Position numbers and translations under genes: made by a program. A DNA stretch of 64,000 nucleotides from the NCBI RefSeq assembly GCF_024700885.2, contig NZ_CP117016.1; one strand, given 5' to 3'. This stretch comes from Escherichia coli (lineage in GTDB: Bacteria > Pseudomonadota > Gammaproteobacteria > Enterobacterales > Enterobacteriaceae). The notes below the pieces were generated by a model, which had not been told where the DNA came from, made no database searches, and was given only the letters and a program-made list of their open reading frames with translations. Every line of letters starts with the position of its first letter. Within the stretch, counting starts at the first letter, position 1. Below are positions 34,390-64,000 of this stretch, in pieces.

Positions 34390-34394
34390 ATGCG

Positions 34395-34424
34395 TGCCCA
34401 TTCCTGACGGAATGGGCATTTCTG
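34395..34424 (+). terminator. terminator hairpin after aroH
   Basis: TGCCCATTCC-TGAC-GGAATGGGCA hairpin followed by a T-rich run. Confidence 0.55.
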
Positions 34425-34519
34425 CGCAACTTGTTGTCTTCTCAACAAATTACTGCTTGCTCTGGCCGCCATAATATTGATAATAAGAATCATTGTTATA
34501 TCAATTATTATTAATTTTT

Positions 34520-34711
34520 ATGCGTTATACGGATAGCAGAAAACTCACGCCTGAAACGGATGCCAATCACAAGACCGCTTCCCCGCAGCCCATCCGGCGA
34601 ATTACCAGCCAGACACTGTTAGGTCCGGATGGCAAACTGATTATCGATCATGACGGGCAAGAATATCTGCTCCGTAAAACTCAGGCTGGCAAGCTGCTGT
34701 TGACCAAGTAG
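34520..34711 (+). CDS. ydiE: HemP/HmuP-like small protein YdiE
   Basis: 63-aa product from [12 protein letters not shown]; K-12 synteny. Confidence 0.7.
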
Positions 34712-34714
34712 CCT

Positions 34715-36190
<1,476 letters not shown>

Positions 36191-40267: not shown

Positions 40268-40708
40268 TTACTTAATAACAGTAACCACAGCCACAAGCAC
40301 GGCCATCGCAGACAGGACAATACCTGTGAGTAACCAAGTCTGATTTGCAAATGATTTCTGAAGTTCAGTACGATGCTCAGCCATCTCAACTTTCAGAGAC
40401 TGGCGTAAATCAGCCATCTCAGACTTCAGGGATTGGCGAGATTCTGCCATCTCAAGCCTCAACCCTTCGCGAATCTCCAGTACATCAGATTTGGTAGCAA
40501 AGGATTCGCTTCTTGTGGTGAGAGTAATCAGGTTGTTTTTGATTTCAGTCACATCACTTTCCAGGCAACTGACCCGCCGTTCAAGGTCGTCATTCATGCC
40601 ATCACCTCCATCATTACCACTTCCTGTTACTTGGTTGTTGGATACATTATAGGCATTCTCTTTCTTTTTTCTGAACCGCGAAATATGTGCAACATTCTCT
40701 GCCATCAC
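40268..40708 (-). CDS. hypothetical tail-anchored coiled-coil membrane protein (prophage cargo)
   Basis: 146 aa; three 11-residue repeats (EMAESRQSLKS / EMADLRQSLKV / EMAEHRTELQK) and a single C-terminal TM helix (WLLTGIVLSAMAVLVAVVTVIK); start overlaps the stop of the upstream gene (ATGA). No family recognised. Confidence 0.55.
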   Translation of the reverse strand: MMAENVAHISRFRKKKENAYNVSNNQVTGSGNDGGDGMNDDLERRVSCLESDVTEIKNNLITLTTRSESFATKSDVLEIREGLRLEMAESRQSLKSEMADLRQSLKVEMAEHRTELQKSFANQTWLLTGIVLSAMAVLVAVVTVIK

Positions 40709-41067
40709 TTCTCATCACCCTGCTTGCCTACCCAGTTCATAAAGGCCCGGGCCGAGTAACGATGAACAAACCCACATCTGTTACAGGTAAGTCGGAATTC
40801 ATAGTTATGGATATTTTCCCGATCATGTCCCTCATATCCCGGATACCCAGTAAATGGACCGATGTAATCAAGCATAACAAAAGTGCCTAAATCACACTCC
40901 TCAGCAGTTTTCGGCTCAGGCCCCACCTCAACAATATTCGTCAAATACATGTACATATCCGTATCGCCACACGACAAACATTTTTCATTCGTAGACGACT
41001 CATTGAGAAAACGCGCAAAATTATCGAGCGTTGCCATTCTTTTAAGCTCATCTAAATGAAACTTCAC
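40705..41067 (-). CDS. hypothetical Cys-motif protein (possible zinc ribbon), prophage cargo
   Basis: 120 aa with CLSC and CNRC pairs; begins 3 nt after the integrase stop. No family recognised. Confidence 0.55.
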   Translation of the reverse strand: MKFHLDELKRMATLDNFARFLNESSTNEKCLSCGDTDMYMYLTNIVEVGPEPKTAEECDLGTFVMLDYIGPFTGYPGYEGHDRENIHNYEFRLTCNRCGFVHRYSARAFMNWVGKQGDEK

Positions 41068-47703: not shown

Positions 47704-48663
47704 ATGAAAATTTGTATCGACGACGGCTCCACCAACATCAAGCTGGCATGGACTGAGAACGGCGAACGCCGCAACGCCATCAGCCCGAACAGCTTCAAGT
47801 CGGAATGGTCTGCGCCGTTCGGTGGCACGCAGCCCGCGAACTACATGCTTGATGGCGTGCGCTATGGTTTTGATCCGGTCAGCGATCGCTTTATCCAGAC
47901 GACCGACACACAATACCAGTACAGCGATGTGAATGTCATTGCCATTCATCACGCGCTGGTCAAATCAGGCATCACGCCACAGGAGGTGGATGTGGTTGTC
48001 ACCCTGCCACTGAGCGAGTATTTCGACACAAACGCACAGCCGGACATGGCCAACATCAACCGCAAAAAAGCAAACGTTATGCGCCCGGTGGAATACCAGA
48101 ACGGCGAAGCATTCACTATCCGTAATGTACGGGTTATGCCTGAATCCATTCCGGCTGGCTTTAAAGCACTGGCTGACATGAGTCCGTTTGAATCCCTGCT
48201 GATTGTGGATTTAGGTGGAACCACGCTGGATGTGGCAAAGGTTCAGGGACAACTGGCAGGTATCAGCCAGGTGTTTTGCGATCCACACGTAGGCGTTTCC
48301 CTGATGGCCGATGCAGTACTGTCGGTGATGGCCACTAACGGTATGCGTACCAGTCACCACATCGCCAATACCATTATCGAACATCGCCATGATGAAGCCT
48401 GGCTGCGCCAGCACATCCACAATGACGCGCATTACGCCAGCCTGATGGCGGTTATTCGTGAAAAGGAAGAAACACTGAAACAACGCGTGATCCGCGCGCT
48501 GGCGGGTTTTTCGGGTTACGGGCGGGTGATGGTTGTCGGTGGCGGGGCGGAGATTGTGGCACCCGCTATCCGCGAAGCCTGCGGAGTTAATGCGACTTTC
48601 ATCGCGGACGGGGTGCCACAGTTTGCTCTGGTTAATGGGCTGTACGCAATGGACAAGGAGTAA
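47704..48663 (+). CDS. ParM/StbA-like actin-type ATPase
   Basis: 319 aa; actin-fold motifs IDDGSTNIKL (phosphate 1), DLGGTTLDV (phosphate 2), VVGGGAE (adenosine); collinear over full length with recalled plasmid R1 ParM (MLVFIDDGSTNIKLQW…YSDVNVVAVHHALL…VMPESIPAGY…DLGGTTLD…GGGAEL). Confidence 0.8.
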   Translation: MKICIDDGSTNIKLAWTENGERRNAISPNSFKSEWSAPFGGTQPANYMLDGVRYGFDPVSDRFIQTTDTQYQYSDVNVIAIHHALVKSGITPQEVDVVVTLPLSEYFDTNAQPDMANINRKKANVMRPVEYQNGEAFTIRNVRVMPESIPAGFKALADMSPFESLLIVDLGGTTLDVAKVQGQLAGISQVFCDPHVGVSLMADAVLSVMATNGMRTSHHIANTIIEHRHDEAWLRQHIHNDAHYASLMAVIREKEETLKQRVIRALAGFSGYGRVMVVGGGAEIVAPAIREACGVNATFIADGVPQFALVNGLYAMDKE

Positions 48664-48667
48664 ACCA

Positions 48668-48979
48668 ATGACGACACCAACCAGGCGGATAAGTTTCTAT
48701 CTGAAGCCTGCGGCCGTCAAGAACGAAAGCGAAGCATGCGCCTGGCTGGACAGCCTTACACCGGAAGCCCGCAAAAGCGGCCAACGCGTGGCTTTTCTGG
48801 CCGGGCTGGCACTTCTGAAAATGAATCCGGCAGAGGCTTACCGACTGGCTGCATGGGCTGACGATGAGGCGTTATCAGTGACACAAACCAGGACAGAACG
48901 CCCCCTGTCACAGCCAGTACCAACCGCACAGATAACCAGTCAGATGGCCGGAAATATCAGGGCGTTATTTCCTGAATAA
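48668..48979 (+). CDS. ParR-like DNA-binding adaptor
   Basis: 103 aa from MTTPTRRISFYLKPAA...; N-terminus resembles recalled R1 ParR (RRTIAFKLNPDV…LDSIP.GERS…AALTAGLALY); starts 5 nt after the parM-like stop. Confidence 0.65.
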   Translation: MTTPTRRISFYLKPAAVKNESEACAWLDSLTPEARKSGQRVAFLAGLALLKMNPAEAYRLAAWADDEALSVTQTRTERPLSQPVPTAQITSQMAGNIRALFPE

Positions 48980-49426: not shown

Positions 49427-49454
49427 CTTAAAGCGGAAGATTAATACATGGTGA

Positions 49455-49481
49455 GTCGGGGTAATTTGTTTTTATCCCGAC
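49455..49481. terminator. bidirectional terminator hairpin between convergent island genes
   Basis: GTCGGG...CCCGAC stem with a T-rich loop and flank, between the plus-strand 127-aa gene and the minus-strand membrane gene. Confidence 0.45.
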
Positions 49482-49516
49482 AAATAAACAAAAAAGTGGA
49501 CTATCTCTGTAGTATC

Positions 49517-50047
49517 TTATTCAGCATCGTCTCGTGCAGTCTGTGCATACGTCACAACAACGCCCAATGCATTAGTTTTCTTTTCAACATAGATAATATT
49601 GTCATATTCATAGTTACCATACGGATAGCAAATAAGAATATTTTTATGCAGATCGGGATCATCAACAAACGCTCCGGAACAGCTTCTTGAACTACCGGAT
49701 GTATACTCATACGGTGCAACATATGATGATGTTACTCCTGGTAAAAAATAAGTCACCATCATAAGAGGGATAATCAGGAATATCCCTGTAAGAATGCAAG
49801 AGCCAGCATAAACCTTCAGGTATTCCGACAGTCCTTTCCAGCCACTTTGCTTCACTACCCCCCTCTTCACCAGAAACAAGGAGAAGAAAAAGGACATACC
49901 CATACTACATAAGATGTAATAATTGGATATACGCGAATTAAGATATGTAATCCTGTAGATATCTGCCCTCCACCAGTAAAAGAGGAAAATAATCCCTAGC
50001 ACTGAAACAGTCATGCAAATCAAATAAGGATATGAATCTTTCTTCAT
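49517..50047 (-). CDS. hypothetical low-GC integral membrane protein (moron-like)
   Basis: 176 aa; three predicted TM segments (YLICMTVSVLGIIFLFYWW, YYILCSMGMSFFFSLFLV, CILTGIFLIIPLMMVTYFL) then a roughly 70-aa soluble C-terminal domain; markedly AT-rich compared with flanking phage DNA (by eye). Confidence 0.6.
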   Translation of the reverse strand: MKKDSYPYLICMTVSVLGIIFLFYWWRADIYRITYLNSRISNYYILCSMGMSFFFSLFLVKRGVVKQSGWKGLSEYLKVYAGSCILTGIFLIIPLMMVTYFLPGVTSSYVAPYEYTSGSSRSCSGAFVDDPDLHKNILICYPYGNYEYDNIIYVEKKTNALGVVVTYAQTARDDAE

Positions 50048-50095
50048 GTCTTGCGCTCATTAAAATTTCCCTGCTACGAACAAATTTACCATCCG

Positions 50096-50250
50096 TTTTT
50101 TGCGCAGAAAACAGCACGATGCACACTGCACGATAGTGCACAAATTTGCACAATTTTTTTGAACGACTTTTTACCCTTCCGGCCCGCATGGCGGCTGGAT
50201 CCGTCAAGGATCCGTGCGTGCACAAAAAAACGCGTTTTTTCTGCGCGCAG
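50096..50250. repeat. structured non-coding region: inverted repeats GCGCAGAAAA/TTTTCTGCGC, TGCACA iterons, GGATCCGT x2 at 11-bp spacing
   Basis: Seen directly; lies where the cos/packaging site of P2-like phages maps (between the accessory island and the portal gene). Confidence 0.5.
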
Positions 50251-50526
50251 GTGACGGGGGAACAGCCCGCGTTTCAGGGGGTAAATAGTATTCCCTGAGC
50301 GATGTCGCAGCGACATAACAGAATGGCCATATTTCTCACGCTGAGCGTGAAAAAGATGTGAGGGCTTTTGATTTGATGGGGTGAAAGGTAAGGCCGTCAA
50401 AATCGAACTGAGGCGGTGAGAACATGCAGTCAGCGCGGTGGGATTGCGTAAGAGTCTGACCGTCGATGATGGTAATAAACAGGAAAGCGTCGTGAAATTA
50501 TCTGATTGATACAGGAGCTGGAGAGT

Positions 50527-50551
50527 CGGGGCATAAATTTTTTATGCCCCG
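50527..50551. terminator. strong hairpin CGGGGCATAAA-TTT-TTTATGCCCCG downstream of the portal gene
   Basis: Perfect 11-bp inverted repeat immediately past the minus-strand Q stop; probable terminator of the Q-P transcript. Confidence 0.55.
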
Positions 50552-50577
50552 GCGAAGCAGCGGACAAGCGAAGCGCG

Positions 50578-51624
50578 TCAGGATGTGGGCTGGGTGTCTA
50601 ACAGTGCGTAAGGGTTAAAGCGAATCACCTCTTCGCCAAGCCAGTCATTGATGTGCTTCATGGCCTCCATGACGGGCATCAGCTCGTTAATTGCGTAAAC
50701 CCGCGCGGCCTTCTCCACATCACCAAACGCACTTTTTTCGCCTGGCATCGCCCCCATCAGTTGCGGCGGAACGCGGTGCGCAGCCAGCACATCATCACGG
50801 GATGCCACCTTAACATTCATGAACTCATCCTTTGCGGTGATCTGCTGGAACGGCAAAATTTGCACCCCCTCTTTGCCACCGTTGGGCGCATGAATGAGCA
50901 CGTTTTTAAACGCACCACCACCACGTGCACCCTGTAGCGTTTCTTTCAGGGAGTCCATGCTTTCGCGGTTTACCTGCGCTGCACCGATGTAGATGATGCA
51001 CCCGGCGTGGGATCCGTTGTCGTAATACAGTTTTCTGAACATGTCCGCCGAATGAGACAGGCTGGCCGAGAGTAATGCGCCGAGATATTCCGGCATGCCG
51101 TAGATTTCCTGGTTAATGTCAGGATTCATCAGGTGGCACACTTTGCCAGGGCGAAACTGAAACGCGTCCTTGCCATCCTGCACATACCACCATGATTCAA
51201 GATCGCTTCCGCGTCGCATGTATTTCGCCAGGGCGTGCCGTAATTTAAGCGGTTCGCCGAGCATATTGCTTCGAAGCTCAAGGAATGCGTTACCGAACAC
51301 AAACCAGTCCAGCGCCAGCGCCGAGAAATCCTGCCGGGAAAGCAACGGGTGCGGGATGTAGCAACCGAGTAATACATTGCGCTTAAAGTAAAGCGCAGAC
51401 TGATGCCAGGACGTTTGCCGGGCAGCTCTTGCCAGACCGTACCAGTCCACCGGGGTTTCATACCACCGCCCGTTATCAGCACAGTACATATTGTCCAGCA
51501 GGTCATGCCCGGTCAGGCGATAAGGACCATCAAATGTGAATGCACTGAGCGATGATTCTTTCCTGAGCGCATCAGCGAGATCAATGCGTGAACTCATGCG
51601 CACTTTTTTATTTTTTCTACTCAT
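50578..51624 (-). CDS. portal protein (P2 gpQ-like)
   Basis: 348 aa; position and orientation as P2 Q; stop overlaps the terminase start. Confidence 0.8.
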   Translation of the reverse strand: MSRKNKKVRMSSRIDLADALRKESSLSAFTFDGPYRLTGHDLLDNMYCADNGRWYETPVDWYGLARAARQTSWHQSALYFKRNVLLGCYIPHPLLSRQDFSALALDWFVFGNAFLELRSNMLGEPLKLRHALAKYMRRGSDLESWWYVQDGKDAFQFRPGKVCHLMNPDINQEIYGMPEYLGALLSASLSHSADMFRKLYYDNGSHAGCIIYIGAAQVNRESMDSLKETLQGARGGGAFKNVLIHAPNGGKEGVQILPFQQITAKDEFMNVKVASRDDVLAAHRVPPQLMGAMPGEKSAFGDVEKAARVYAINELMPVMEAMKHINDWLGEEVIRFNPYALLDTQPTS

Positions 51625-53375
51625 CAGAACTCCATAACCGTGAAACGCTCGTTTTCTCCTTCGCCGCCAATTGGTTCGTTAATGACAGCAAGCATGGTTG
51701 CCCACGCAAGGTCGCCGTGGCTGATCCCCCTCGCGCGGTCCGTTTCGTAAGTGATAAAGCCGCCCGGTGTTTTCACCTTACGCACGGCGTTAAAGGCCGC
51801 GACCAGCTCGCGTTCGGCGCGATCGTATTCCCACCGCCCGGCACGCATTATTTGCAGCATTTTCAGTACCAGCGACCGTTTTGATGACAGCGTGAAGGTG
51901 TACGGAATAGCGGCAGGGAAAAACCGTTTCACTATCTGATAAACAGCCTCCCCGTTCCCGCCCGTCACATCAATGCCGATGTGTTCCACGTTGTAGCGAC
52001 ACGTGAACTCTTCAATGACTCTGGCCTGTTCTTCAAACTCCAGCCCCTGAACGCGTCGCGTCTCCACCGTTCGAAAACGGCCACCAGGAACAGACGGAGG
52101 AACCACCACGGACACAGCGCCGCTGTCGCCGTTGCCACTGCTGCCGTTTGCGTCATACCCAATCCATACCGGACGATTCCCCATCGGGCGGGGAGCAAAA
52201 GGTTTCCAGTCTTTCCAGTCGTCGTATCCGTCAACACCGCAGCCAATCAGGATATTCAGGTTAAATGCCGATTCCCCTTCGCGGACAAACTCACACATAT
52301 AGAGATTGAGGAACTCGTCTTCGGTGTTTTCATCACGAATTTCGTCGATATCGGTGTGTTCCCAGCCGTGATTAACCACATCTTCCAGCGTGACAATTTG
52401 CCGCCACGTCCGGTCAGGGCAGATAAGCCCGTTATGCAGCGTTTTCCAGTCCACAGAAAAACGCTGGCGTTTATGCGTGGCCTTTTTCTCGTTCCAGCGG
52501 TCGCCGTTCCAGTAGGCGTATGCCTCGTGCGTTTCGGTGGATGGCGTGGAGAAGTAGGTGCGCCGCAGTCCGCTGAGGGTTGCCATAGCGCCAGCCACCT
52601 TGCGCAGTTCAGCAAAGCGACTGACCCAGAAAAATTCATCAAAATAAAAATTGCCCGTATAGGACTGTGCCGACGCAGCAGAAGTGCCGAGAAAATGCAG
52701 CTCTGCGCCGTTGGAGAGGATGATTTTATCGCCCCCTTTCAGCTCCACATCAACTTCAGCCGCGGCCTTCTGAATAATGCTTTTAAACTGGAACGCCTGA
52801 CGACGCGACGCAGACAAAAAAATCTGGTTACGCTGGTAAGGTTGCGCCACATCGTCACGCAGCGCCATCAGCAGCGCTTCCTGTGCAAAATACCAGGTCG
52901 CCCCAATCTGTCGGGATTTCAGGATCATCCTGTTACGTATCCCTGCTTCCCTGCAAAGGGTCAGGGAGTCAAACCAGCCCCGCTGATGCCACTCCAGCCT
53001 GCTGATGATTTTTTCCCGCAGTGCGGCAATCTGTTCCGGCGTGAAATGATTTTTAAGCTTTTTCGCCCGGCCTTTCTTTCCTGTGGCCGTCGCATCCGGC
53101 TGGCCATCATGCAGTTTTTTAAGCTGCCGGGTCAGCAGGTCTATTTCCTTGAAGTCACCACCTGTTTTATTCTGTTTTTCAGTGAGCTGGATGAGGCGCG
53201 CATCGATGGACTGCGTGACACGCTGCACGGGTGGCGTTTCATCCCACTGGTCGCGTTTTTTCCACGCATAAATCGTGTTCGGGTTTATTCCCATCAGACG
53301 TGATATTTCTGCGGGCGGATAACCCTGCCAGTAAAGTTGCCGCGCACGCTGGCGCACAAAAGCGTCCTGAATCAT
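51624..53375 (-). CDS. terminase large (ATPase) subunit (P2 gpP-like)
   Basis: 583 aa; P2 late-operon synteny, divergent from O-N-M-L. Confidence 0.8.
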   Translation of the reverse strand: MIQDAFVRQRARQLYWQGYPPAEISRLMGINPNTIYAWKKRDQWDETPPVQRVTQSIDARLIQLTEKQNKTGGDFKEIDLLTRQLKKLHDGQPDATATGKKGRAKKLKNHFTPEQIAALREKIISRLEWHQRGWFDSLTLCREAGIRNRMILKSRQIGATWYFAQEALLMALRDDVAQPYQRNQIFLSASRRQAFQFKSIIQKAAAEVDVELKGGDKIILSNGAELHFLGTSAASAQSYTGNFYFDEFFWVSRFAELRKVAGAMATLSGLRRTYFSTPSTETHEAYAYWNGDRWNEKKATHKRQRFSVDWKTLHNGLICPDRTWRQIVTLEDVVNHGWEHTDIDEIRDENTEDEFLNLYMCEFVREGESAFNLNILIGCGVDGYDDWKDWKPFAPRPMGNRPVWIGYDANGSSGNGDSGAVSVVVPPSVPGGRFRTVETRRVQGLEFEEQARVIEEFTCRYNVEHIGIDVTGGNGEAVYQIVKRFFPAAIPYTFTLSSKRSLVLKMLQIMRAGRWEYDRAERELVAAFNAVRKVKTPGGFITYETDRARGISHGDLAWATMLAVINEPIGGEGENERFTVMEF

Positions 53376-53529
53376 TGCTCCCCCTGAGTAATTACAGGAA
53401 GATTACCCGCGCGCGAAACTGTTCTCCTTAACCCCCTGTTCTGGCCGTTTTCTTACAACAAAAGCCCTTTGTATCAGCCTGTTACGCTTTGCCATCATGA
53501 CTGAAGAACCAGTCAGAGGGGCAAAAACT

Positions 53530-54366
53530 ATGGCTAATGAAAAAAAGACATCCCGCAAAAAGTTTCGCGTGGCTGTCTCCGGTGTAACGGCAGACGGGCG
53601 CGAAATCAACGGCGACATGCTGAAAGCTGCCGCCACCAGTTATAACCCGTCCGTTTATGGTGCACGTGTGAATATTGAGCACATCCTGTCACCACTCCCC
53701 GGTAGCGAGTTTTCCGCTATGGGCGATGTTGTGGGGTTGAGCACCGAAGACATAACCGATGGCCCGCTGGCAGGCCGCACGGCACTGTATGCCGAAATTG
53801 AGCCGACCGCTCGCATGATGTCCCTGCTTAACGATGGTAAAAAAATTTACTCCAGTATTGAGCTGGAACCACAGTCAACCATCACGGGAGGCCCTTACCT
53901 GCGCGGGCTGGCAATGACCGACACCCCTGCCAGCCTGGGCACGGAACGTCTGGCCTTTGCGGCACAACAACGTATGCAACTGATGACATTCAACTGTCAG
54001 CAGGGAGACGTGGCGATGTTTACCGCCGCTATGGAGTCAGAACTTATCGAACTCACCGAACAACGTCAGGAAGAAGGCACCCAGTGGTTTAACCGCGTTA
54101 TGGGGATTATTGGCCGTGGCCGCAAAGCGGATGACGCCAGTTTCTCCCGTATTCAGGAAGCGGTGGAAGGTGTCGCAACGTCACAGGCCGACATTATCGA
54201 CCGTTTTAATGCGCTGGAAACCCGCCATCAGCAGGACAGCCAGAAAATCACTTTACTGACCACAGAGCTGACAGCACTGAAGGAAAAACTGCGCACGCAG
54301 GACGGCGATCCGCAGAACCGGTTCACCGCAACGGGCGCAGCCTCCGATCAACTGGCTGACTTCTGA
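53530..54366 (+). CDS. capsid scaffolding protein (P2 gpO-like)
   Basis: From MANEKKTSRKKFRVAVSGVTADGREI; resembles recalled P2 gpO (FRIGVEGDTCDGRVI…LAVTDDPASLGTE…). Confidence 0.8.
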   Translation: MANEKKTSRKKFRVAVSGVTADGREINGDMLKAAATSYNPSVYGARVNIEHILSPLPGSEFSAMGDVVGLSTEDITDGPLAGRTALYAEIEPTARMMSLLNDGKKIYSSIELEPQSTITGGPYLRGLAMTDTPASLGTERLAFAAQQRMQLMTFNCQQGDVAMFTAAMESELIELTEQRQEEGTQWFNRVMGIIGRGRKADDASFSRIQEAVEGVATSQADIIDRFNALETRHQQDSQKITLLTTELTALKEKLRTQDGDPQNRFTATGAASDQLADF

Positions 54367-54389
54367 TAAGACAAAGGAGCAAATTTTTT

Positions 54390-55442
54390 ATGAATCTGGT
54401 GATGTCAGATATTACCCGCAACAAGCTGGGTTGCTATATGGCGCAGCAGGCGTCGCTTAACAACATCCCGGTATCTGCACTGGTATCGCGATTTACCGTG
54501 GAACCCTCGGTGCAGCAGCGTTTTGAAAACGCAGTAAAGGAGAGCACTGAATTTACAAAAAAAATTAACGTGTTCGGTGTGACCGACCAGAAAGGCGAAA
54601 AAATCCTCCTGGACACCACCGGGCCGATTGCGCGCACGAATACCAGTTATGACGGCACAAAACGCCGTAACCCGAATAACGTGGTTGATCTGAAAAACCG
54701 CAAATATCAGTGCGAACAGGTGAACTACGACACGTTTATTTCGTATCCGCAGCTTGATGCCTGGGCGGCACACCCTGATTTTCAGTCACGCGTCAGCACA
54801 CAGATTGCCCGGCAGGTGGCGCTTGACCGCATCATGATCGGTTTCAACGGCACGTCTCACGCAGATGAGTCCAACTTCAGCACCAACAAGCTGCTTCAGG
54901 ACGTTAACGTGGGATGGCTGGAGCACATCAGAACCGACGCCAGCGAGCGCGTAATGAATGACGTGACGCTGACCTCCCGCAACATGGACAACACCGTGGC
55001 GCACGCGGGTAAGTATGCGAACGCTGATGCACTGGTACAGGACGCGCGCTCATCCCTGCTGGATGAATGGCACAAGGAAGCTGACGACCTCGTGGTGATT
55101 ATGGGGCGCAACCTGTTTAACTCGCTGCGTCTGCCCGTGCTGAACAGCATCAGCGGCCAGAATCCCAATGCGGAATTACTTGCCGGACAGCTCATCCTGT
55201 CATCGCGCGCCATTGGCGGACTGGATGTATTCCTTGCGCCGTTCTTCCCGGATTCAACGATGCTGATCACCTCGTTCAACAACCTGTCGATTTACTGGCA
55301 GAAAGGAACAATGCGTCGCCTGATGAAAGACGAGCCGGAATACAACCGCATCGCCACCTACCAGTCCATCAATGACGCTTATGTCGTTGAAGACTATGGC
55401 AAGTGCGCGATGGTCACTGGCCTGAAGTTCGCCGACAGCTAA
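54390..55442 (+). CDS. major capsid protein (P2 gpN-like)
   Basis: 350 aa; collinear motifs with recalled P2 gpN (FTVEPSV, MIGFNG, GWL, YVVEDY). Confidence 0.85.
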   Translation: MNLVMSDITRNKLGCYMAQQASLNNIPVSALVSRFTVEPSVQQRFENAVKESTEFTKKINVFGVTDQKGEKILLDTTGPIARTNTSYDGTKRRNPNNVVDLKNRKYQCEQVNYDTFISYPQLDAWAAHPDFQSRVSTQIARQVALDRIMIGFNGTSHADESNFSTNKLLQDVNVGWLEHIRTDASERVMNDVTLTSRNMDNTVAHAGKYANADALVQDARSSLLDEWHKEADDLVVIMGRNLFNSLRLPVLNSISGQNPNAELLAGQLILSSRAIGGLDVFLAPFFPDSTMLITSFNNLSIYWQKGTMRRLMKDEPEYNRIATYQSINDAYVVEDYGKCAMVTGLKFADS

Positions 55443-55487
55443 TCAACTCACGGCGGGCATCATGCCCGCCTGTAACGGAGAGAAAAA

Positions 55488-56288
55488 ATGATTACTCCTG
55501 CACAGCAACACTGGCAGAACGTGATGGCACAGCGCGCAGGCCGGGCGAATGAAGGCGTGGACCACGCCGCGCGTACCGCGCATGAAGAGGTGCTGTATCG
55601 TCTGCGTCTGGCACAGGCCCGACTTAAGGGCGTACAGGCCAGAAGCGCGAAAGCCGCCATCAAAAAAGAGTTGTTGCCGGACTTTTCCGGCTGGATTGAG
55701 GGAACGCTGGAGGCTGACGGCGGGCAGCAGGATGAAGTGATTGCCACGCTGATGGTGTGGGCAATTGACTGCGGCGATCTTCCGCTGGCGCTGCGTATTG
55801 GTGCGTATGTGGTCCGTCACAACCTCATCATGCCGGATAACTTTGGCCGTACTGCTGCCACGGTACTGACCGAAGAAATCTGCAACCCGGTACTGACGCA
55901 GGCCGGGACGGATGCCGACGCGGATTTGTCCGCCTTTATCGAACCACTGGACACACTTTGGGAAATTGTCGCCAACCAGGATATGCCGGACGAAGTGCGC
56001 GCCAAATTATGCAAGGCGTGCGCCTTTGCCCGCCGTAGCCTGAGCGATGCGGACAGCATGGCCTCATCACTGAAGCTGCTGCGCGAAGCGATGCACCTGA
56101 ACCCGAACGCAGGTGTGAAACGCGAGATTGCAACCCTTTCCCGCGCTCTGAAAAAAGCCGATTCCGCAGCCGCACCAGAAGATGCCAGCACACCGCAGGC
56201 GCAGAACGAAAGCAGCAAAAGTAAAAAGACAACGCGGAAGCCTGCAACACGAAAAACCACCGCGACGCAGAAGGCGAAGCGCGGTTAA
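55488..56288 (+). CDS. terminase small subunit (P2 gpM-like)
   Basis: 266 aa; shares KKELLP and MPDEVRAKL with recalled P2 gpM; basic C-terminal tail. Confidence 0.8.
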   Translation: MITPAQQHWQNVMAQRAGRANEGVDHAARTAHEEVLYRLRLAQARLKGVQARSAKAAIKKELLPDFSGWIEGTLEADGGQQDEVIATLMVWAIDCGDLPLALRIGAYVVRHNLIMPDNFGRTAATVLTEEICNPVLTQAGTDADADLSAFIEPLDTLWEIVANQDMPDEVRAKLCKACAFARRSLSDADSMASSLKLLREAMHLNPNAGVKREIATLSRALKKADSAAAPEDASTPQAQNESSKSKKTTRKPATRKTTATQKAKRG

Positions 56289-56380
56289 CGACTGACCCCG
56301 TCAGCGGGCGGCGTGCGCGGTGTTCCGGTTTGACTCCGTGACCGTTTACACCGCGCACCCACCGCCCGATTTTTTCAGGA

Positions 56381-56884
56381 GTGAACCCCATGAGTATGGT
56401 TGCCAGAACCAACCCCGGCCCCGCAGAGGACGACATCACCGATACCGATGATGGTGATACCCGTATTTCAGCGGGTGCATTCTGGCCGGATATTGTGCTG
56501 CGTGAGCTGCGTCTGGCGGTACGACTGCCGGGGCGCGTGACCACCTCCCGCCTGCTGCATACCGCCACCGGGGCCGTGGCACACGTTACCCGCGAGCTGG
56601 AAGCGTGGCAGCAGGAACAGCAGGCGGCTGGCCATCAGACGCTGGCCGATGTTCCGGCACCCGTAATTAACGGAGAAAGCGTCAATCTCTGGCGCTGGCG
56701 CAATGCTGTTTATACCGCCACACGCGCCCTGATTCTGGAGCGTTACCGCGATGCGGACACAACGGACAAGGGCGACCGCCGGGCGGACGCACTGGATATA
56801 CAGACATCGGATTTGTGGCGCGATGTGAGCTGGGCCATCTCTGACATTCTGTGCCGCCCGCGAATCTTTGCGGAGTTGTGCTGA
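56381..56884 (+). CDS. head completion/stabilisation protein (P2 gpL-like)
   Basis: About 165 aa; resembles recalled P2 gpL (LADVPA...GES...LWRDMRWA). Confidence 0.75.
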   Translation: MNPMSMVARTNPGPAEDDITDTDDGDTRISAGAFWPDIVLRELRLAVRLPGRVTTSRLLHTATGAVAHVTRELEAWQQEQQAAGHQTLADVPAPVINGESVNLWRWRNAVYTATRALILERYRDADTTDKGDRRADALDIQTSDLWRDVSWAISDILCRPRIFAELC

Positions 56885-57084
56885 TGAAAGTGAAGGCACT
56901 GGAAGGCGACACCGTGGATTCGCTCTGTTTCCGGTACTACGGCACGACGCAGGGCGTCACCGAAAAGGTGCTGGATGCCAACCCCGGACTCTGTCAGCAG
57001 GTATTTCTGGACGCCGGGCAGGAAGTGGAGATGCCGGAGCCGGAGAAGAAGAAACGAGAAATGATTCAGTTGTGGGGGGAGTAG
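56884..57084 (+). CDS. tail protein X (P2 gpX-like, LysM-like)
   Basis: 66 aa from MKVKALEGDTVDSLCFRYYGTTQGVTEKVLDANPGL; resembles recalled P2 gpX (MKTFALQGDTLDAICVRYYGRTEGVVETVLAANPGL). Confidence 0.8.
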   Translation: MKVKALEGDTVDSLCFRYYGTTQGVTEKVLDANPGLCQQVFLDAGQEVEMPEPEKKKREMIQLWGE

Positions 57085-57086
57085 CA

Positions 57087-57410
57087 GTGAGCACCATTCA
57101 AACAGGGATCACAGAGCAGGTTATTGCATGGCTCTTTGACCACCTGCCAACGGTGTATGCAGTAGGCGCGGCGGTCAGCATTTCCGCGCTGATGAGTCTT
57201 TATGACGGACGAACACTGGTTCAGACCGTAACGGGATCGCTGGCGTGCGGCGTTCTTGCCATGGCCGTGGCCGGGTCGTTGCGCTTCTTCGGTTTTCCTG
57301 AAGATGCCGTGACGTTTATCGGCGCATCAATCGGTTTTATGGGGGCAGAGAAAGCACGCGACAAGGTTATTGCGGCCTTTAATCGCAGGGTGAAGGAGAA
57401 GGACGAATGA
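57087..57410 (+). CDS. putative holin
   Basis: About 107 aa from a GTG start; two hydrophobic helices and a charged C-terminus (RRVKEKDE); sits immediately upstream of the endolysin. Confidence 0.5.
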   Translation: MSTIQTGITEQVIAWLFDHLPTVYAVGAAVSISALMSLYDGRTLVQTVTGSLACGVLAMAVAGSLRFFGFPEDAVTFIGASIGFMGAEKARDKVIAAFNRRVKEKDE

Positions 57411-57799
57411 GCAACACATTTAAATTCAGCAGCCGGAGCGAAAAGAATTTGCAGGGCGTAAATCCTGATCTGGTGAAAGTGACCCGACGGGCACTGGAAA
57501 TTTCGGAAGTGGATTTTGGTATCACCGAAGGGTTGCGCAGCCGTTACCGCCAGAAGCAACTTGTGGCCACAGGTAAGAGCCAGACCATGAACAGCCGCCA
57601 CCTTACGGGACATGCCGTGGATGTTGTGGCTTATATCGGCAGCCAGGTGTCATGGGAATGGCCGCTGTACGAAAAAATCGCAGCCGCATTCAGACAGGCC
57701 AGCCGGGAACTGAATATTCCGGTGGAATGGGGCGGCGACTGGAAGACCCTGAAAGACGGACCGCATTTTCAGTTACCACACGGAGCCTATCCGGCATGA
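57407..57799 (+). CDS. endolysin, peptidase-M15-like zinc peptidase
   Basis: 130 aa; His/Asp zinc-site pattern (HLTGHAVD...DGPHFQ) typical of L-Ala-D-Glu peptidase endolysins; P2 K is a lysozyme, so this is a module replacement. Confidence 0.7.
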   Translation: MSNTFKFSSRSEKNLQGVNPDLVKVTRRALEISEVDFGITEGLRSRYRQKQLVATGKSQTMNSRHLTGHAVDVVAYIGSQVSWEWPLYEKIAAAFRQASRELNIPVEWGGDWKTLKDGPHFQLPHGAYPA

Positions 57800-58203
57800 A
57801 GCTCTGGCCAACGCTTGGCGTCGCTTTCCTTCTGATTGTCGGATGGGGAACATCCATGCGTCTGTCATGGTCGCTGGGCCGGGAGAACGCCAGAAACGAA
57901 GCGCAGGCCAGCACCCTGAAACGTACCGCCGACACCCTGAATATCATCAGCGCCGGGGTACAGGATATGCAGCAGGTGCTGGCGCAACTCCGCGTGGAAA
58001 ATCAGCAACGCAATCAGGACGGAGAGGCAAGACGTGAACAGCTACGCAACGATATTGCAAAAGATGAATGCGCCCACGCTTTGCCTGACGCTCGTTTTAC
58101 TGACAGGCTGCGCAGGCACGCAGAACGCGCTACGGCCAGCGCCGTCAGTCCGGCTTATACCGCAGACGCTGACCATACCGGTAACGCCTCCCCCCTTCCC
58201 TGA
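57796..58203 (+). CDS. i-spanin (Rz/LysB-like)
   Basis: From MKLWPTLGVAFLLIVGW; N-terminal TM then coiled coil; ATGA-coupled to the endolysin. Confidence 0.65.
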   Translation: MKLWPTLGVAFLLIVGWGTSMRLSWSLGRENARNEAQASTLKRTADTLNIISAGVQDMQQVLAQLRVENQQRNQDGEARREQLRNDIAKDECAHALPDARFTDRLRRHAERATASAVSPAYTADADHTGNASPLP

Positions 58204-58354
58204 CACTCCCACATGGGGAAATCTCGGTATATGGGGCGACCGCCTTCTGGATGCACTGGAAACCTGTAACGCGGATAAACGGGCCATTGAATTACTGGAA
58301 CAGCGCAGGCTGCAACGACTGAACAACGAGGACAACAACCATGCTGAAAACTGA
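58064..58354 (+). CDS. o-spanin lipoprotein (Rz1/LysC-like), overlapping the i-spanin in the +1 frame
   Basis: From MNAPTLCLTLVLLTGC (lipobox LTGC), Pro-rich; overlapping architecture like P2 lysB/lysC. Confidence 0.6.
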   Translation: MNAPTLCLTLVLLTGCAGTQNALRPAPSVRLIPQTLTIPVTPPPFPDTPTWGNLGIWGDRLLDALETCNADKRAIELLEQRRLQRLNNEDNNHAEN

Positions 58355-58808
58355 TTCCCTGCGTGAAGCCATGACCCGTTCATGCCGATGGTGTCAGGCC
58401 AACCCGGAAAAATTCACCATTTTCGTGGAGAGCGGCAACATTGAAACGACCGGAGAAACGCCCTCGTTTGTTTACCGCTATCAGATGGTGATGTTTGTCA
58501 TGGATTACGCCGGGGAGCTGGACGACCTCACGTTGCCGCTACTGGCGTGGTTATCCGAAAATCAGCCACAGTTGTTGCTCAATCCGGAGCGTAATCAGGA
58601 CATCAAATTTTCCGCCGTTATCAATGACGATGACAGCGCCGATCTCCTGTTTACGCTCCCCCTGCGGGAACGCGTTCGCATTACGCGCAACAGTCAGGGC
58701 ACACCGCAGGCAGAACACCTGCCGGAGCCAAAACCCCGTCTGCCCTCTTCCGAAGGCGACTGGTCACATGTATTCCAGGATGTGACGTGGGGTGAAAGCG
58801 ATGGATAA
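58341..58808 (+). CDS. tail completion protein (P2 gpR-like)
   Basis: 155 aa; position after the lysis genes as in P2. Confidence 0.7.
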   Translation: MLKTDSLREAMTRSCRWCQANPEKFTIFVESGNIETTGETPSFVYRYQMVMFVMDYAGELDDLTLPLLAWLSENQPQLLLNPERNQDIKFSAVINDDDSADLLFTLPLRERVRITRNSQGTPQAEHLPEPKPRLPSSEGDWSHVFQDVTWGESDG

Positions 58809-59436
58809 GGCATTCACCCGTGTGGATGAAACCTTTGAGGCCATCCGCGACAGCCTGAATCAGCAGGCCATCAATAACATCGCCAGAAAGCTGGCACAGG
58901 ATTTACGCCGCGCCCAGCAGGCACGTATCCGGTCACAGAAAGCGCCGGACGGGACCGCGTGGACACCTCGCAGACGCCGCGTAACCCGGATACAGGAGCG
59001 CATTCGCTTTATCTGGAATAACGAAGCACGCACGCTGAAAAACTGGCATCACGACACGGGGAAATACGGGCGAACCATTACCGGGTGGGATGAGGATAAA
59101 AACAATATCCGCACGTTTTACCGGGATGACATCGACCGTTTTCTGGAAATACGCACCCGGCGCATCAACCAGGACAGCACAAAGCGCGTCCCCATGTTCG
59201 TAAAACTGCGCACCGCCCGCTACCTGAAAGCCCGTGCAGATGCTTCCGGTGTGACGGTGGGTTACAGCGGCGTGGCCGCACGTATTGCACGCGTTCATCA
59301 GTTCGGTGAGCGCGATCAGGTTGCGCCGGGCATTTTCACCGATTACTCGGTACGTGAGCTGCTGGGTATCAGCCTGGCAGATGAACGCCTGATTTATAAC
59401 ACGGTGCTGGGCCGGATTGCGGAGGCTGTACGGTGA
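58801..59436 (+). CDS. tail completion protein (P2 gpS position)
   Basis: About 211 aa; late-operon synteny. Confidence 0.6.
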   Translation: MDKAFTRVDETFEAIRDSLNQQAINNIARKLAQDLRRAQQARIRSQKAPDGTAWTPRRRRVTRIQERIRFIWNNEARTLKNWHHDTGKYGRTITGWDEDKNNIRTFYRDDIDRFLEIRTRRINQDSTKRVPMFVKLRTARYLKARADASGVTVGYSGVAARIARVHQFGERDQVAPGIFTDYSVRELLGISLADERLIYNTVLGRIAEAVR

Positions 59437-60014
59437 GCGCAGAACTCATGCGACTGCTGAGCAACATCATCCGCACCGGGATCATCTCTGAAGTTGATGA
59501 GGAATCCTGGTGCGTGCGCGTTCGCAGCGGCGAACTGGAAACAGGCTGGTTGCGCTGGAACACCACGCGCGCGGGAGCCTTCAATGTGTGGCTGCCGCCA
59601 TCACCAGGCGAACAGGTGGTAATTGCCTGCATTGGCGGCAACCCGGAAACCGCCATGATAATTGGCAGCCTGTGGAGTGATGCCATTCCGGCCCCCGGCA
59701 AAAGCCTGAAAGAAATCGTGGTCAGCGCGCCGGATGGCGCGGTGTTCCGCTACGACGCGGCCGCAGGCGCACTGAGCGCCAGCGGCATGAAAACAGCCAC
59801 CCTGCAGGCATCCGTCAGCGTGACACTGGATACGCCCGTCGTGGAATGCACAGACCTTCTGAGAACGGCGACGCTTGACGTCACAAAAGGGGGAAAGATG
59901 AGCGGCAATATCACGCACAGCGGCGGCAATTTCACCTCAAACGGCATCACAGTGCATACGCATAAACACGGTGGCGTTAAAGGTGGCAGCGATTCGACAG
60001 GAGGCCCGCAGTGA
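59433..60014 (+). CDS. baseplate spike/assembly protein (P2 gpV-like)
   Basis: 193 aa; synteny V-W-J-I. Confidence 0.7.
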   Translation: MSAELMRLLSNIIRTGIISEVDEESWCVRVRSGELETGWLRWNTTRAGAFNVWLPPSPGEQVVIACIGGNPETAMIIGSLWSDAIPAPGKSLKEIVVSAPDGAVFRYDAAAGALSASGMKTATLQASVSVTLDTPVVECTDLLRTATLDVTKGGKMSGNITHSGGNFTSNGITVHTHKHGGVKGGSDSTGGPQ

Positions 60015-60361
60015 CAACCCGCTATACAGGAATGAACCCGGACGGAACGGGAAACCTGAACGATATGGAGCACCTGAAACAGTCAGTCAAGGACATCCTG
60101 ACCACCCCGCTGGCAAGCCGGGTTATGCGACGGGAATATGGCAGCCTTGTGCCTGATTTGATAGACGAACCCATGAATAACACCACGCGTCTGCAATGCA
60201 TGAGTGCTGCCGTGATTGCGCTGACACGATGGGAACCCCGCATTGCCCTGGATGCCATCGACGTTGTCTGGAAGGCAGGAGGCCGCGCCGGGGTGACGCT
60301 GTCGGGCACTGTCATGCAGACCATGCAGAATGTTGAATTAACCATCACGCTGAGGGAGTAA
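60011..60361 (+). CDS. baseplate wedge protein (P2 gpW-like)
   Basis: 116 aa, same size class as P2 W; synteny. Confidence 0.75.
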   Translation: MTTRYTGMNPDGTGNLNDMEHLKQSVKDILTTPLASRVMRREYGSLVPDLIDEPMNNTTRLQCMSAAVIALTRWEPRIALDAIDVVWKAGGRAGVTLSGTVMQTMQNVELTITLRE

Positions 60362-60364
60362 ATC

Positions 60365-61261
60365 ATGCCTGCCGTTGACCTTTCACAGTTACCGGAACCC
60401 GCCATCATCGCGGAGCCTGACTTTGAGGCAATTCTGGCTGACACAAAGGCCATGATGATTGCGTCCTATCCCGCCGAACAGCGTGAAGCCGTTTCCGCCG
60501 CGCTGGAGCTGGAATCGGAACCCCTTAACGTTATCGCTCAAACCATGTCGTTTCGTGAAATGCTGTTACGCCAGCGGGTCAATGAGGGTGCACGCGCCTG
60601 CATGCTAAGCCACAGCGCCGGGACAGACCTGGACAACCTCGCGGGCAATATGAACACAAAGCGCCTGGTTATCACTCCGGCAACGGATACCACCGACGCA
60701 GTGATGGAAAGTGACACCTCGCTGAGACTACGGGCGCAACGGGCATATGACGGTCTGAGTGTTGCTGGCCCGTCAGGTGCATACGAGTATTTTGCACGCA
60801 GCGCCAGCGGTCTGGTACGCGATGCGCGGGCCATCAGCCCGTCTCCGGCCAACGTGACGGTTTCCATCCTGTCCACTGAGGGCGACGGCACAGCAACGGA
60901 GGCGTTGCTTAATACCGTTCGCGCCGTTCTGAATGCAGAGCATACCCGCCCGGTGGCCGACCGCCTGACCGTACAGAGTGCCAGAATCGTGACATGGCGG
61001 CTGAATGCAAAACTGTACTTTTACCCCGGCCCGGAATCCGAACCTATTCTGGCCGCGGCGGAATCGTCATTCAGGAAGTGGCTGGCTGAACAGGGGCTTA
61101 TCGGTCAGGACGTGGCGTTGTCCGCCATTGCTGCCGCACTTCATGTACACGGCGTGCAACGCGTGGAGATAATCGAACCCACACAGAATATGGCCATCAG
61201 CGACATACAGGCGGCGCGCTGTGAGTCATTCACCATCAGCGAAGGTGGGCGTAATGAGTAA
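60365..61261 (+). CDS. baseplate protein (P2 gpJ-like)
   Basis: 298 aa; synteny. Confidence 0.75.
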   Translation: MPAVDLSQLPEPAIIAEPDFEAILADTKAMMIASYPAEQREAVSAALELESEPLNVIAQTMSFREMLLRQRVNEGARACMLSHSAGTDLDNLAGNMNTKRLVITPATDTTDAVMESDTSLRLRAQRAYDGLSVAGPSGAYEYFARSASGLVRDARAISPSPANVTVSILSTEGDGTATEALLNTVRAVLNAEHTRPVADRLTVQSARIVTWRLNAKLYFYPGPESEPILAAAESSFRKWLAEQGLIGQDVALSAIAAALHVHGVQRVEIIEPTQNMAISDIQAARCESFTISEGGRNE

Positions 61262-61784
61262 TTCACTGTTACCGCCATCAGCCAGCAGTTTCATGCGTCG
61301 TGCCGAAGCTGTCGGAACGCGCATTACAGACATCCCGGTAGACCTCAACACGCTGTGGTCGCCGGACACCTGCCCGGTGCACCTGCTGCCTTATCTCGCC
61401 TGGGCATTTTCCGTTGACCGCTGGGATCGCAACTGGCCGGAAGAGACAAAGCGACAGGTGATTCGTGATGCATGGCTGATACACCGACACAAGGGAACCA
61501 TCAGCGCACTGCGCCGGGCCATTGAGCCGCTGGGATACCTCATTCGTGTGTCTGAGTGGTGGGAGTTCGGCGGAGAACCGGGAACATTTACCGTTGAAGT
61601 GGGCACGCTGGACAGTGGCGTGACGGAGGAAATGTATCTGGAAATGGAGCGGTTGATTGCTGATGCCCGCCCGGTCAGCCGCCACATGACAGGGCTGAAT
61701 ATCATTCAGGAGATCCCGGGAGATATTTTCGCGGCGGCAGCAACTTACGACGGTGAAGTCATTACCATTTATCCGGACGATTAA
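61254..61784 (+). CDS. baseplate/tail protein (P2 gpI-like)
   Basis: 176 aa from [13 protein letters not shown]; overlaps the J stop. Confidence 0.75.
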
Positions 61785-61786
61785 GC

Positions 61787-63976
61787 ATGAGTACCACAAC
61801 ACGTAAATTTAAAACCGTTATCACCGATACGGGTGCCAAAAAATTAGCTCAGGCAGCCGCGCCAGATGGTAAGCTTGTCCGCCTGACTCATATGGCCGTG
61901 GGCGACGGTGGCGGTACATTGCCCACACCAGACAGTAAGCAGACCCGTCTGGTGCATGAGGTGTGGCGACATACTGTTAATCGCGTCTTCCTGGACGCAA
62001 CACATCAGAACCGCATTATTGCGGAGCTGGTTATTCCTCCTGAAACGGGCGGATTCTGGATCCGGGAAATTGGTGTATTTGATGAGCACGGCGATTTGAT
62101 CGCGGTTGGCAATACAGCCGAAAGTTACAAGCCAACCGTTGCCGAAGGGTCAGGACGTGCACAAACATTTCGCACCATTCTGACCGTCTCCAGCACTGCC
62201 ACTGTGGCGCTTACCGTGGATAACACCATGGTTATGGCCACAGTGGATTACGTGAATGACAAACTGAAAGAACATGAACAGTCACGACGTCACCCGGACG
62301 CCTCGCTGACCGCAAAAGGCTTTGTTCAACTCAGTAGCGCCACCAACAGCACGTCTGAAGCACTGGCCGCAACGCCGAAAGCGGTCAAGGCAGCCTATGA
62401 CCTTGCTAACGGGAAATATACCGCACAGGACGCCACTATAGCGCGAAAAGGCCTTGTTCAGCTCAGTAGCGCCACCAACAGCGATTCTGAAACGCTGGCG
62501 GCAACACCAAAGGCGGTAAAGGCAGCATATGACCTTGCTAACGGGAAATATACCGCACAGGACGCTACCACAGCGCGAAAAGGTCTTGTCCAGCTCAGTA
62601 GTGCGACCAACAGCACATCCGAAATGCTGGCGGCAACACCAAAGGCGGTAAAGGCAGCATATGACCTTGCTAACGGGAAATATACCGCACAGGACGCTAC
62701 GACAGCACAAAAAGGAATTGTCCAGCTCAGTAGTGCAACCAACAGCGCATCTGAAACGCTTGCTGCGACATCGAAAGCAGTGAAAGCAGCTAATGACAAT
62801 GCGAATGGTCGGGTACCTTCTGCCCGTAAGGTGAATGGTAAGGCGCTTTCAGCGGATATAACACTGACACCGAAAGATATTGGTACGCTTAACTCAACAA
62901 CTATGTCATTCAGCGGTGGTGCTGGTTGGTTCAAATTAGCAACGGTAACCATGCCGCAGGCGAGTTCTGTTGTTTCAATTACGTTGATTGGTGGGGCTGG
63001 ATATAACGTCGGTTCACCTCAACAGGCAGGTATATCTGAACTTGTTTTGCGTGCAGGTAATGGTAATCCGAAGGGGATTACTGGTGCTTTATGGCAGCGC
63101 ACATCGGCAGGGTTTACAAATTTTGCCTGGGTCAATACATCTGGTGATACTTACGATATTTACGTTGCAATCGGAAATTATGCGACTGGTGTAAATATTC
63201 AATGGGATTATACCAGTAATGCCAGCGTAACGATTCATACGTCACCTGCATATTCTGCTAATAAGCCGGAAGGGTTAACGGACGGTACAGTTTATTCACT
63301 CTATACGCCATCAGAGCAGTTTTATCCGCCTGGCGCACCAATCCCGTGGCCATCGGATACCGTTCCGTCTGGTTATGCCCTGATGCAGGGGCAGACTTTT
63401 GACAAATCTGCCTACCCGAAACTTGCAGTCGCTTATCCGTCAGGCGTGATCCCTGATATGCGTGGCTGGACGATTAAGGGCAAGCCCGCCAGTGGTCGTG
63501 CCGTATTGTCTCAGGAACAGGACGGCATTAAATCGCACACCCACAGCGCCAGCGCATCCAGTACGGATTTGGGTACGAAAACCACATCTTCGTTTGATTA
63601 CGGCACTAAATCAACGAATAACACGGGTGCACATACCCACAATGTATCTGGTACTGCAAATAGTGCTGGCGCACATACTCATACCGTTCCATTAAGGAGA
63701 CCAAACAGTGGAGGTATGAATTTCGACTGGCTTGATGGTGCATCAAGTGGCACGGTGGTGGGGAATGGAACTGTGCCTTCTTCTGGCGCACATACCCACT
63801 CAGTATCAGGTACCGCTACAAGTGCTGGGGCACATGCACACACTGTTGGTATTGGCGCTCATACGCACTCTGTTGCGATTGGTTCACATGGACACACCAT
63901 CACCGTTAACGCTGCTGGTAACGCGGAAAACACCGTTAAAAACATCGCATTTAATTATATTGTGAGGCTTGCATAA
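61787..63976 (+). CDS. tail fibre protein (P2 gpH-like) with internal tandem repeats and C-terminal His-x-His repeats
   Basis: 729 aa; conserved N-terminal baseplate-attachment region, four 44-aa repeats, and a C-terminal array of GAHTH/HTHSV motifs. Confidence 0.8.
62313..62840 (+). repeat. 4 x 132-bp in-frame tandem repeat inside the tail-fibre gene
   Basis: Repeat unit encodes KG(F/L)[37 protein letters not shown].; the fourth copy is degenerate. This is coding repeat, not CRISPR. Confidence 0.8.
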
Positions 63977-64000
63977 TGGCATTCAGAATGAGTGAACAAT
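63976..64000 (+). CDS. start of next tail gene (tail-fibre assembly position), truncated by window end
   Basis: ATG overlapping the H stop (MAFRMSEQ...); only 8 codons visible. Confidence 0.3.

Follow-up and report, generated by a model that had tools for sequence, protein, structure and literature searches.

The segment from position 57087 to 58354 of the window, that is, the whole 64,000-nucleotide stretch of Escherichia coli DNA analyzed here, is very likely the lysis cassette of a P88-like prophage and is predicted to encode a holin, an M15 family endolysin, an i-spanin and an o-spanin. The identities of these genes are computed ones, based on family assignments, conserved catalytic residues, gene architecture and the near-identity of the cassette to that of an inducible phage; the E-values of the cassette families are far beyond chance. 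A sequence-only reading of the same segment had proposed that a holin, an endolysin and an overlapping pair of spanins are all present, and the open reading frames with their Pfam and phrog matches confirm this. The interpretation offered in that reading, a module exchange through which an M15-type peptidase replaced the lysozyme in an otherwise P2-collinear late region, is, taken as a whole, partly supported. The cassette itself is an ordinary, already catalogued lysis set of a common E. coli prophage and, as such, is already known because it is covered by RefSeq phage and PGAP annotation and has close homologs with solved structures and measured activity. The names 'phage holin family protein' and 'M15 family metallopeptidase' have already been given by PGAP, and the P88 record already annotates a holin, an 'endolysin; Peptidase M15' and a DUF2570 protein. 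The sole annotation gap is the o-spanin, which several public annotations omit or start at a doubtful codon.

The prophage and its lysis genes

Positions 1-40059 of the window are E. coli core chromosome (pykF, lpp, the suf operon, ydi genes, aroD, ppsA, aroH and btuCED), with 98% identity to strain 98208 over this part. A P2-like prophage occupies the window from approximately 40.1 kb to its end; in the closest genomes, the insertion site is the interval between btuC and ihfA. Three complete E. coli chromosomes match positions 50000-64000 at 100%, and at least 80% of this region is present in 849 of the 5426 complete E. coli genomes. Among phage records, Escherichia phage P88 and related phages match most of the prophage at 95-96% identity. 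For P88 itself, identity is 95.7% over 74% of positions 40000-64000 and rises to 98.2% at the DNA level over the 1958 bp of the X-to-R region. Judging by sequence similarity, the prophage belongs to the genus Xuanwuvirus (P88-like) of the family Peduoviridae. Phage P88 has been induced from its lysogen, its host range has been measured, and P88 mutants lyse new hosts (PMC5285337). In the window, integrase and replication genes are located upstream of the cassette, and the P2-type set of head, tail and baseplate genes is complete. The late genes appear in the order Q, P (minus strand), O, N, M, L, X, the lysis genes, R, S, V, W and J, so that the late region is indeed collinear with that of P2. 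All late genes within the window are full-length, and the window stops at position 64000 inside the tail fiber region. In the closest complete genome, PGAP flags several prophage genes as frameshifted or partial; beyond the window, that genome has a short gpD-like gene (VgrG/Pvc8). Searches of the small open reading frames near int and near the portal gene with Pfam and PADLOC returned nothing significant.

The four lysis genes are intact, all on the plus strand and translationally linked, and are placed between two tail genes. The upstream border is the gene for tail protein X (56884-57084, plus strand; PF05489 Phage_tail_X, E=1.3e-20; 48% identity to P2 X), and the downstream border is the tail completion gene R (58341-58808, plus strand; PF06891 P2_Phage_GpR, E=3e-40; 40% identity to P2 R). 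The holin/endolysin and endolysin/i-spanin junctions are both 4-nt ATGA overlaps. The GC content of the four genes (0.54-0.59) is close to the prophage average (0.535) and thus carries no compositional mark of recent import. There is a peak of GC skew over the holin gene that could reflect the amino acid composition of the holin alone. A consensus scan of positions 53200-59600 for promoters and terminators detected no more sites than were found in shuffled sequence and none that were meaningful within the cassette. Similarly, reading the intergenic DNA upstream of gene O beside the P2 PO region revealed no convincing TGT-N12-ACA dyad of an Ogr-type late promoter.

The predicted holin (57087-57410, plus strand; 107 aa) matches PF05106 (Phage_holin_3_1) with E=1.1e-19 and 71 bits in a profile search with a cut-off of 23.8, as well as the holin/anti-holin family phrog_126 (1.7e-35), and scores just under the cut-off of the NCBIfam holin_lambda equivalog TIGR01594 (54.5 versus 55.05 bits). 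By these matches, it is a single-start holin of the lambda S family (class I type). Translation would begin at the GTG at 57087, before which stands GGGGGGAG with a Shine-Dalgarno sequence. Hydropathy shows three hydrophobic, uncharged stretches (residues 19-39, 43-65 and 74-87), the putative transmembrane segments, and in the C-terminal tail charged residues make up 12 of the last 20 positions. The holin is 99.1% identical to that of P88, and its homologs, found in 95 phage records, are far rarer than those of the endolysin. No dual-start motif was detected: no other in-frame start lies near 57087, and the N-terminus is free of positive charge. This motif belongs to lambda S itself and not to the PF05106 family as a whole. 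Among the open reading frames of the cassette, neither a lysA-like gene nor a second holin start was found. The missing dual start and the missing lysA-like antiholin count against a full explanation of the cassette, as the control of lysis timing is unaccounted for.

The endolysin gene (57407-57799, plus strand) encodes a predicted single-domain M15 zinc peptidase of 130 aa that is 100% identical to the P88 endolysin. The sequence-only reading had taken the protein for an M15-type zinc peptidase distinct from the P2 K type and had named a profile search for the M15 domain as a check. The search was positive (PF13539 Peptidase_M15_4, 46 bits with a cut-off of 25, E=8e-12), the protein also matches the endolysin family phrog_465 (5e-77), and BLAST detects no similarity between it and P2 K. 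The refuting outcome named there, assignment to a non-lytic family, was not observed, with the qualification that ChiX, the best studied of the near relatives, has been co-opted for secretion. The PDB sequence matches include the Peptidase M15C domain protein 23RI (2e-48; 63% identity), ChiX of Serratia marcescens (5OPZ; 2.5e-48; 62% identity over 126 residues), LysECD7 (8Q2G; 2.7e-46), the T5 endolysin (2MXZ; 9e-23), Ply500 (2VO9; 3.6e-07) and LysB4 (6AKV; 1.5e-05). ChiX is a LAS family zinc enzyme in which H68, D75 and H123 are the zinc ligands, D120 is essential, as demonstrated with the D120A mutant, and the L-Ala-D-Glu bond is cleaved according to HPLC-MS of muropeptides (PMC5778951). In the alignment, R47, H68, D75, D120 and H123 of ChiX correspond to R44, H65, D72, D117 and H120 of the endolysin, all five being retained. 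The four residues other than R44 fall in the motif SRHLTGHAVD ... DGPH, in which H-x6-D ... H provides the Zn2+ ligands and the catalytic Asp precedes the last His by three residues. Taken together with LysECD7, which is also a phage endolysin of this family (PMC11267749), these matches point to a predicted L-alanyl-D-glutamate endopeptidase (LAS/VanY-type M15); the specificity for the L-Ala-D-Glu bond would follow from the 62% identity to ChiX. No signal peptide or SAR segment is present in the endolysin (maximum 15-residue Kyte-Doolittle hydropathy of 0.74). The protein, lacking a hydrophobic segment, would thus be cytoplasmic and require a hole-forming holin. Homologs of the endolysin are present in 1249 phage records at E<=1e-10, including T5-like and T4-like phages, and the M15 endolysin gene is found in 1068 of the 5426 complete E. 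coli genomes.

The predicted spanins are a two-component pair with the overlapped architecture of P2 LysB/LysC, not an embedded one. The i-spanin (57796-58203, plus strand; 135 aa) was identified as an Rz-like spanin of phrog_214 (1.1e-41) and shares 97% identity with its P88 counterpart, which is annotated as a DUF2570 protein; its own match to the Pfam DUF2570 family is below threshold (20.6 bits versus a cut-off of 26.6). The protein has an N-terminal transmembrane segment, with a hydrophobic peak at residues 8-16, followed by a charged periplasmic domain with a single cysteine at position 92. The o-spanin gene (58034 or 58064 to 58354, plus strand) starts within the i-spanin gene in a different frame, continues beyond the i-spanin stop and reaches into the start of R. 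The product, an Rz1/LysC-like lipoprotein, belongs to PF23793 (LysC; 7.5e-13, 48.6 bits with a cut-off of 27) and matches phrog_3001 and phrog_456. It contains the lipobox LLTG/C, and the mature protein of 81 aa includes nine prolines and a second cysteine. The candidate starts are the GTG at 58034, where the Shine-Dalgarno sequence GGAGAGG is followed by 6 nt and which has the best ribosome-binding site among the possible starts, and the ATG at 58064. The o-spanin and P88 Rz1 are identical in 105 of 107 aligned positions. This gene is unannotated in several public records, the P88 RefSeq record among them, and in a newer PGAP record the chosen start lies just seven residues ahead of the lipobox cysteine.

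Proposed lysis pathway and related systems

The cassette is presumably co-transcribed inside the late morphogenetic operon (O-S), by analogy with the P2 O operon and in keeping with the 4-nt overlaps. The holin of the lambda S family would build up in the inner membrane and then trigger, forming large holes, the timing of triggering and the hole size being extrapolated. The soluble, cytoplasmic M15 endolysin could then exit through these holes to the murein. There, it would probably cut the L-Ala-D-Glu bond of the stem peptides, with Zn2+ bound by H65, D72 and H120 and with D117 as the putative acid/base. Finally, the i-spanin anchored in the inner membrane and the o-spanin, a lipoprotein of the outer membrane, are expected to assemble into an outer membrane-disrupting complex.

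The closest systems are the cassettes of other Xuanwuvirus phages (P88, P884B11, 500465-2, 503458, 520873, Chuche and PhiR44_2), with 98.2-98.7% DNA identity from X to R. The P88 cassette has the same gene order and overlaps and differs by a few substitutions only. Among more distant systems, the lambda S/R/Rz/Rz1 set shares with the cassette the holin-endolysin-spanin logic and a cytoplasmic endolysin. However, lambda R is a transglycosylase whereas the window enzyme is a peptidase, and the lambda o-spanin gene is embedded whereas that of the window is overlapped. Lambda S belongs to the same Pfam family as the window holin, yet the two share 23% identity over 60 residues, and the window holin has no dual start. 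The T5 endolysin EndoT5 (2MXZ), LysECD7 (8Q2G) and the endolysins of RB49-like and T5-like phages, all from virulent phages of Gram-negative hosts, are likewise single-domain proteins of this fold family, about 130-140 aa in length. Their identity to the window endolysin is lower (approximately 38% for T5-like phages), and the holins and spanins paired with them are unrelated. As a close relative of LysECD7, the endolysin appears to be akin to the anti-Gram-negative enzybiotic candidates in development.

Alternative interpretations and comparison with P2

The similarity to ChiX, which at 62% identity is the closest functionally characterized relative of the endolysin, raises the question whether the cassette could be a domesticated, non-lytic type 10 secretion system that exports host proteins instead of releasing phage. 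The composition of the chiWXYZ operon of S. marcescens, namely a single-start protein of the holin-3 family, an M15 endopeptidase and two spanins (PMC4259817), matches that of the cassette. The likeness is at the level of the ChiX sequence and operon composition, but the ChiX locus is a chromosomal chitin-utilization locus for chitinase secretion and the window genes are part of a prophage late operon. They lie between X and R inside the complete P2-type morphogenesis gene set, with the integrase and replication genes upstream, share 98% identity with the cassette of the inducible phage P88, and have no adjoining cargo gene for a chitinase or a toxin; a secretion function is therefore exceedingly improbable. 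Hardly more credible is the possibility that the peptidase is a VanY-like D-Ala-D-Ala carboxypeptidase instead of an L-Ala-D-Glu endopeptidase, as the description of PF13539 ('D-alanyl-D-alanine carboxypeptidase') would have it. The nearest relatives with a measured or assigned specificity, that is, ChiX (on muropeptides), the T5 endolysin, Ply500 and LysECD7, are all L-Ala-D-Glu enzymes, and a carboxypeptidase could not break the sacculus and hence would have no endolysin role. It is also unlikely, although less so, that the lysis genes are intact in sequence yet silent, the prophage being defective or cryptic in this strain. The partial and frameshifted genes and the short VgrG/Pvc8 gene in the closest complete genome, along with the end of the window inside the tail fiber region, are compatible with such decay. 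Against it stand the full-length late genes in the window and the 97-100% identity of the lysis proteins to those of an inducible phage; even if the prophage were cryptic, the identity of the cassette would be unchanged.

A different origin for the lysis cassette of this P88-like prophage is implied by the idea that only the K lysozyme of a P2 backbone was recently replaced by the M15 peptidase. The late gene order of P2 and the absence of similarity between the endolysin and P2 K speak for such a replacement, and the likeness to P2 further includes the location of the lysis block in the late operon between X and R and the overlapped spanins with the o-spanin overlapping R. However, the structural proteins are just 25-54% identical to those of P2, the backbone being that of a P88-like Xuanwuvirus, so that the sequence-only view of P2 with only the endolysin swapped does not hold. 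The other lysis genes differ as well. P2 holin Y is a PF04550 protein with no BLAST match to the PF05106 holin of the window; P2 K, with 55% identity to lambda R, is unlike the M15 endolysin; P2 lysA has no counterpart, with no BLAST match to LysA and neither room nor a resembling open reading frame between Rz and R; and P2 LysB has no BLAST match to the i-spanin. LysC is the sole P2 lysis protein that shares a Pfam family (PF23793) with the window, at 31% identity (E=1e-3). The M15 gene is, moreover, the usual state in Xuanwuvirus phage records, and the cassette shows no compositional anomaly. Calling the element 'P2 with the lysozyme replaced' is too narrow because the genus is different and nearly the whole lysis block belongs to other families. 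The BLAST comparison with P2 proteins refutes this narrow reading, and the probability left to it is very small.

Exchange at the endolysin position

The module exchange proposed in the sequence-only reading is real at the endolysin slot, where M15 and GH108 enzymes alternate within the genus, but it is not a replacement of the P2 lysozyme. Citrobacter phage Shae_phiSM (Xuanwuvirus) and E. coli S1-CHI-01-A carry in this slot a GH108 muramidase of 181 aa that consists of PF05838 and PF09374 (PG_binding_3) domains. The exchangeable segment corresponds to positions 57388-57816 (plus strand), in place of which a GH108/PG_binding_3 endolysin is found in Shae_phiSM and in some E. coli prophages. Homology of the window to both sequences ends at 57387, seven codons ahead of the holin stop, and restarts among the first Rz codons, at 57817 in the case of Shae_phiSM and at 57794 in the case of S1-CHI-01-A. 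The exchange junctions are within about 25 bp of the ends of the endolysin gene, and the flanks of the GH108 variant in these two sequences are 97.4-97.5% identical to the window at the DNA level. The holin and Rz of the GH108 variant are both 91% identical to those of the window, and a 54-nt spacer follows the holin gene in contrast to the 4-nt overlap in the window cassette. The GH108 alternative is present in 66 of the 5426 complete E. coli genomes.

Other phages share different parts of the cassette. Phage Bas82 carries an endolysin with 74.6% identity to that of the window, but its holin and spanins are unrelated. A holin of 55% identity occurs in the P2-like Salmonella phage SEN4, together with a lysozyme of PF00959 and a spanin of the DUF2514 type. 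Transfer of the cassette as a whole was considered and rejected, given that Bas82 shares just the endolysin and SEN4 just the holin; this partial sharing indicates that the cassette is not a fixed unit. P2-like Burkholderia phages have been described whose holins, endolysins and antiholins do not resemble their P2 counterparts (PMC3091744), and the P88 lysin is phylogenetically distinct from the lysins of other P2-like coliphages (PMC5285337). In view of these reports, together with Bas82, SEN4 and the GH108 variants, the mosaicism of lysis blocks in P2-like phages is established knowledge. A more specific proposal, that the endolysin position of P88-like phages is a defined single-gene exchange site bounded by the last seven or so holin codons and the first seven or so i-spanin codons, at which two enzymes that differ in bond specificity, an M15 L-Ala-D-Glu peptidase and a GH108 muramidase, are kept polymorphic in E. 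coli, appears rather improbable. If it were true, host peptidoglycan modifications or superinfection pressures could favor one or the other enzyme.

Within the genus, P88-like prophages present a clean natural case of a single-gene endolysin swap, M15 versus GH108, with junctions defined at the base-pair level, and the o-spanin can be added to public annotations. The GH108 enzymes also have a secretion-associated relative, TtsA of Salmonella, which would parallel ChiX among the M15 enzymes.

Endolysin slot and the adjacent o-spanin gene

The content of the endolysin slot varies within the genus Xuanwuvirus: the slot is occupied by an M15 peptidase gene in some members, as in the prophage described here, whereas others carry a muramidase with GH108 and PG_binding_3 domains. 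The exchangeable segment corresponds to positions 57388-57816 of the window and, in the two loci compared for this slot, to positions 3538-4177 (L002) and 2478-3094 (L008), with the exchange junctions located at most about 25 bp from the gene ends. Among 5426 complete E. coli genomes, the M15 peptidase gene is present in 1068 and the GH108-PG_binding_3 muramidase gene in 66.

The o-spanin (Rz1/LysC) gene of the same cassette (58034-58354) is missing from the RefSeq annotation of P88 and from that of Shae_phiSM, and PGAP likewise leaves it unannotated in E. coli 98208. A more recent PGAP record includes this gene under the name lysC, with a start that leaves just 7 residues ahead of the lipobox cysteine. 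The GTG codon at 58034, which is preceded by the Shine-Dalgarno sequence GGAGAGG, looks like a better start than the one chosen in that record.

Tail genes and the right end in strain 98208

The homologue of gene S (58792-59436) encodes a protein of 214 aa, compared to 150 aa for P2 S; two stretches of this protein match the Phage_tail_S profile. The prophage lacks a counterpart of orf30, the ORF that separates S from V in P2. The tail-fibre gene contains an internal tandem repeat (62314-62760) with a unit of 132 bp (44 codons), 3.4 copies and an 89% match.

Past the end of the window, the gpD-like (VgrG/Pvc8) region can be followed in strain 98208, the closest genome (positions 33290-35416 of its locus, L004). 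There, a partial ORF is followed by a short, 789-nt gpD-like gene and then by a 1155-nt hypothetical gene; in that strain, the prophage may therefore be damaged close to its right end.

Genes between btuC and the portal gene

Two small genes on the minus strand (40268-41067; GC 0.44) separate btuC from the prophage integrase gene and may be prophage cargo. One encodes a 146-aa protein that has heptad-like repeats and, at its C-terminus, a hydrophobic segment, and the other a Cys-rich protein of 120 aa; Pfam and PADLOC searches yielded no significant match for either. Downstream of the replication endonuclease gene, ParM-like and plasmid-partition-family genes (47704-48979) are identified from the annotation of a near-identical genome; P2 itself is not known to carry such genes.

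An AT-rich stretch (49450-50450; GC 0.43), flanked by an Ead/Ea22-like gene on one side and by the portal gene on the other, is found at the position where P2 has its tin/old moron site. It contains a minus-strand ORF for a hydrophobic protein of 176 aa (49517-50047) that has no significant match in family searches (Pfam, PADLOC) and whose equivalent gene in strain 98208 is flagged by PGAP as frameshifted.
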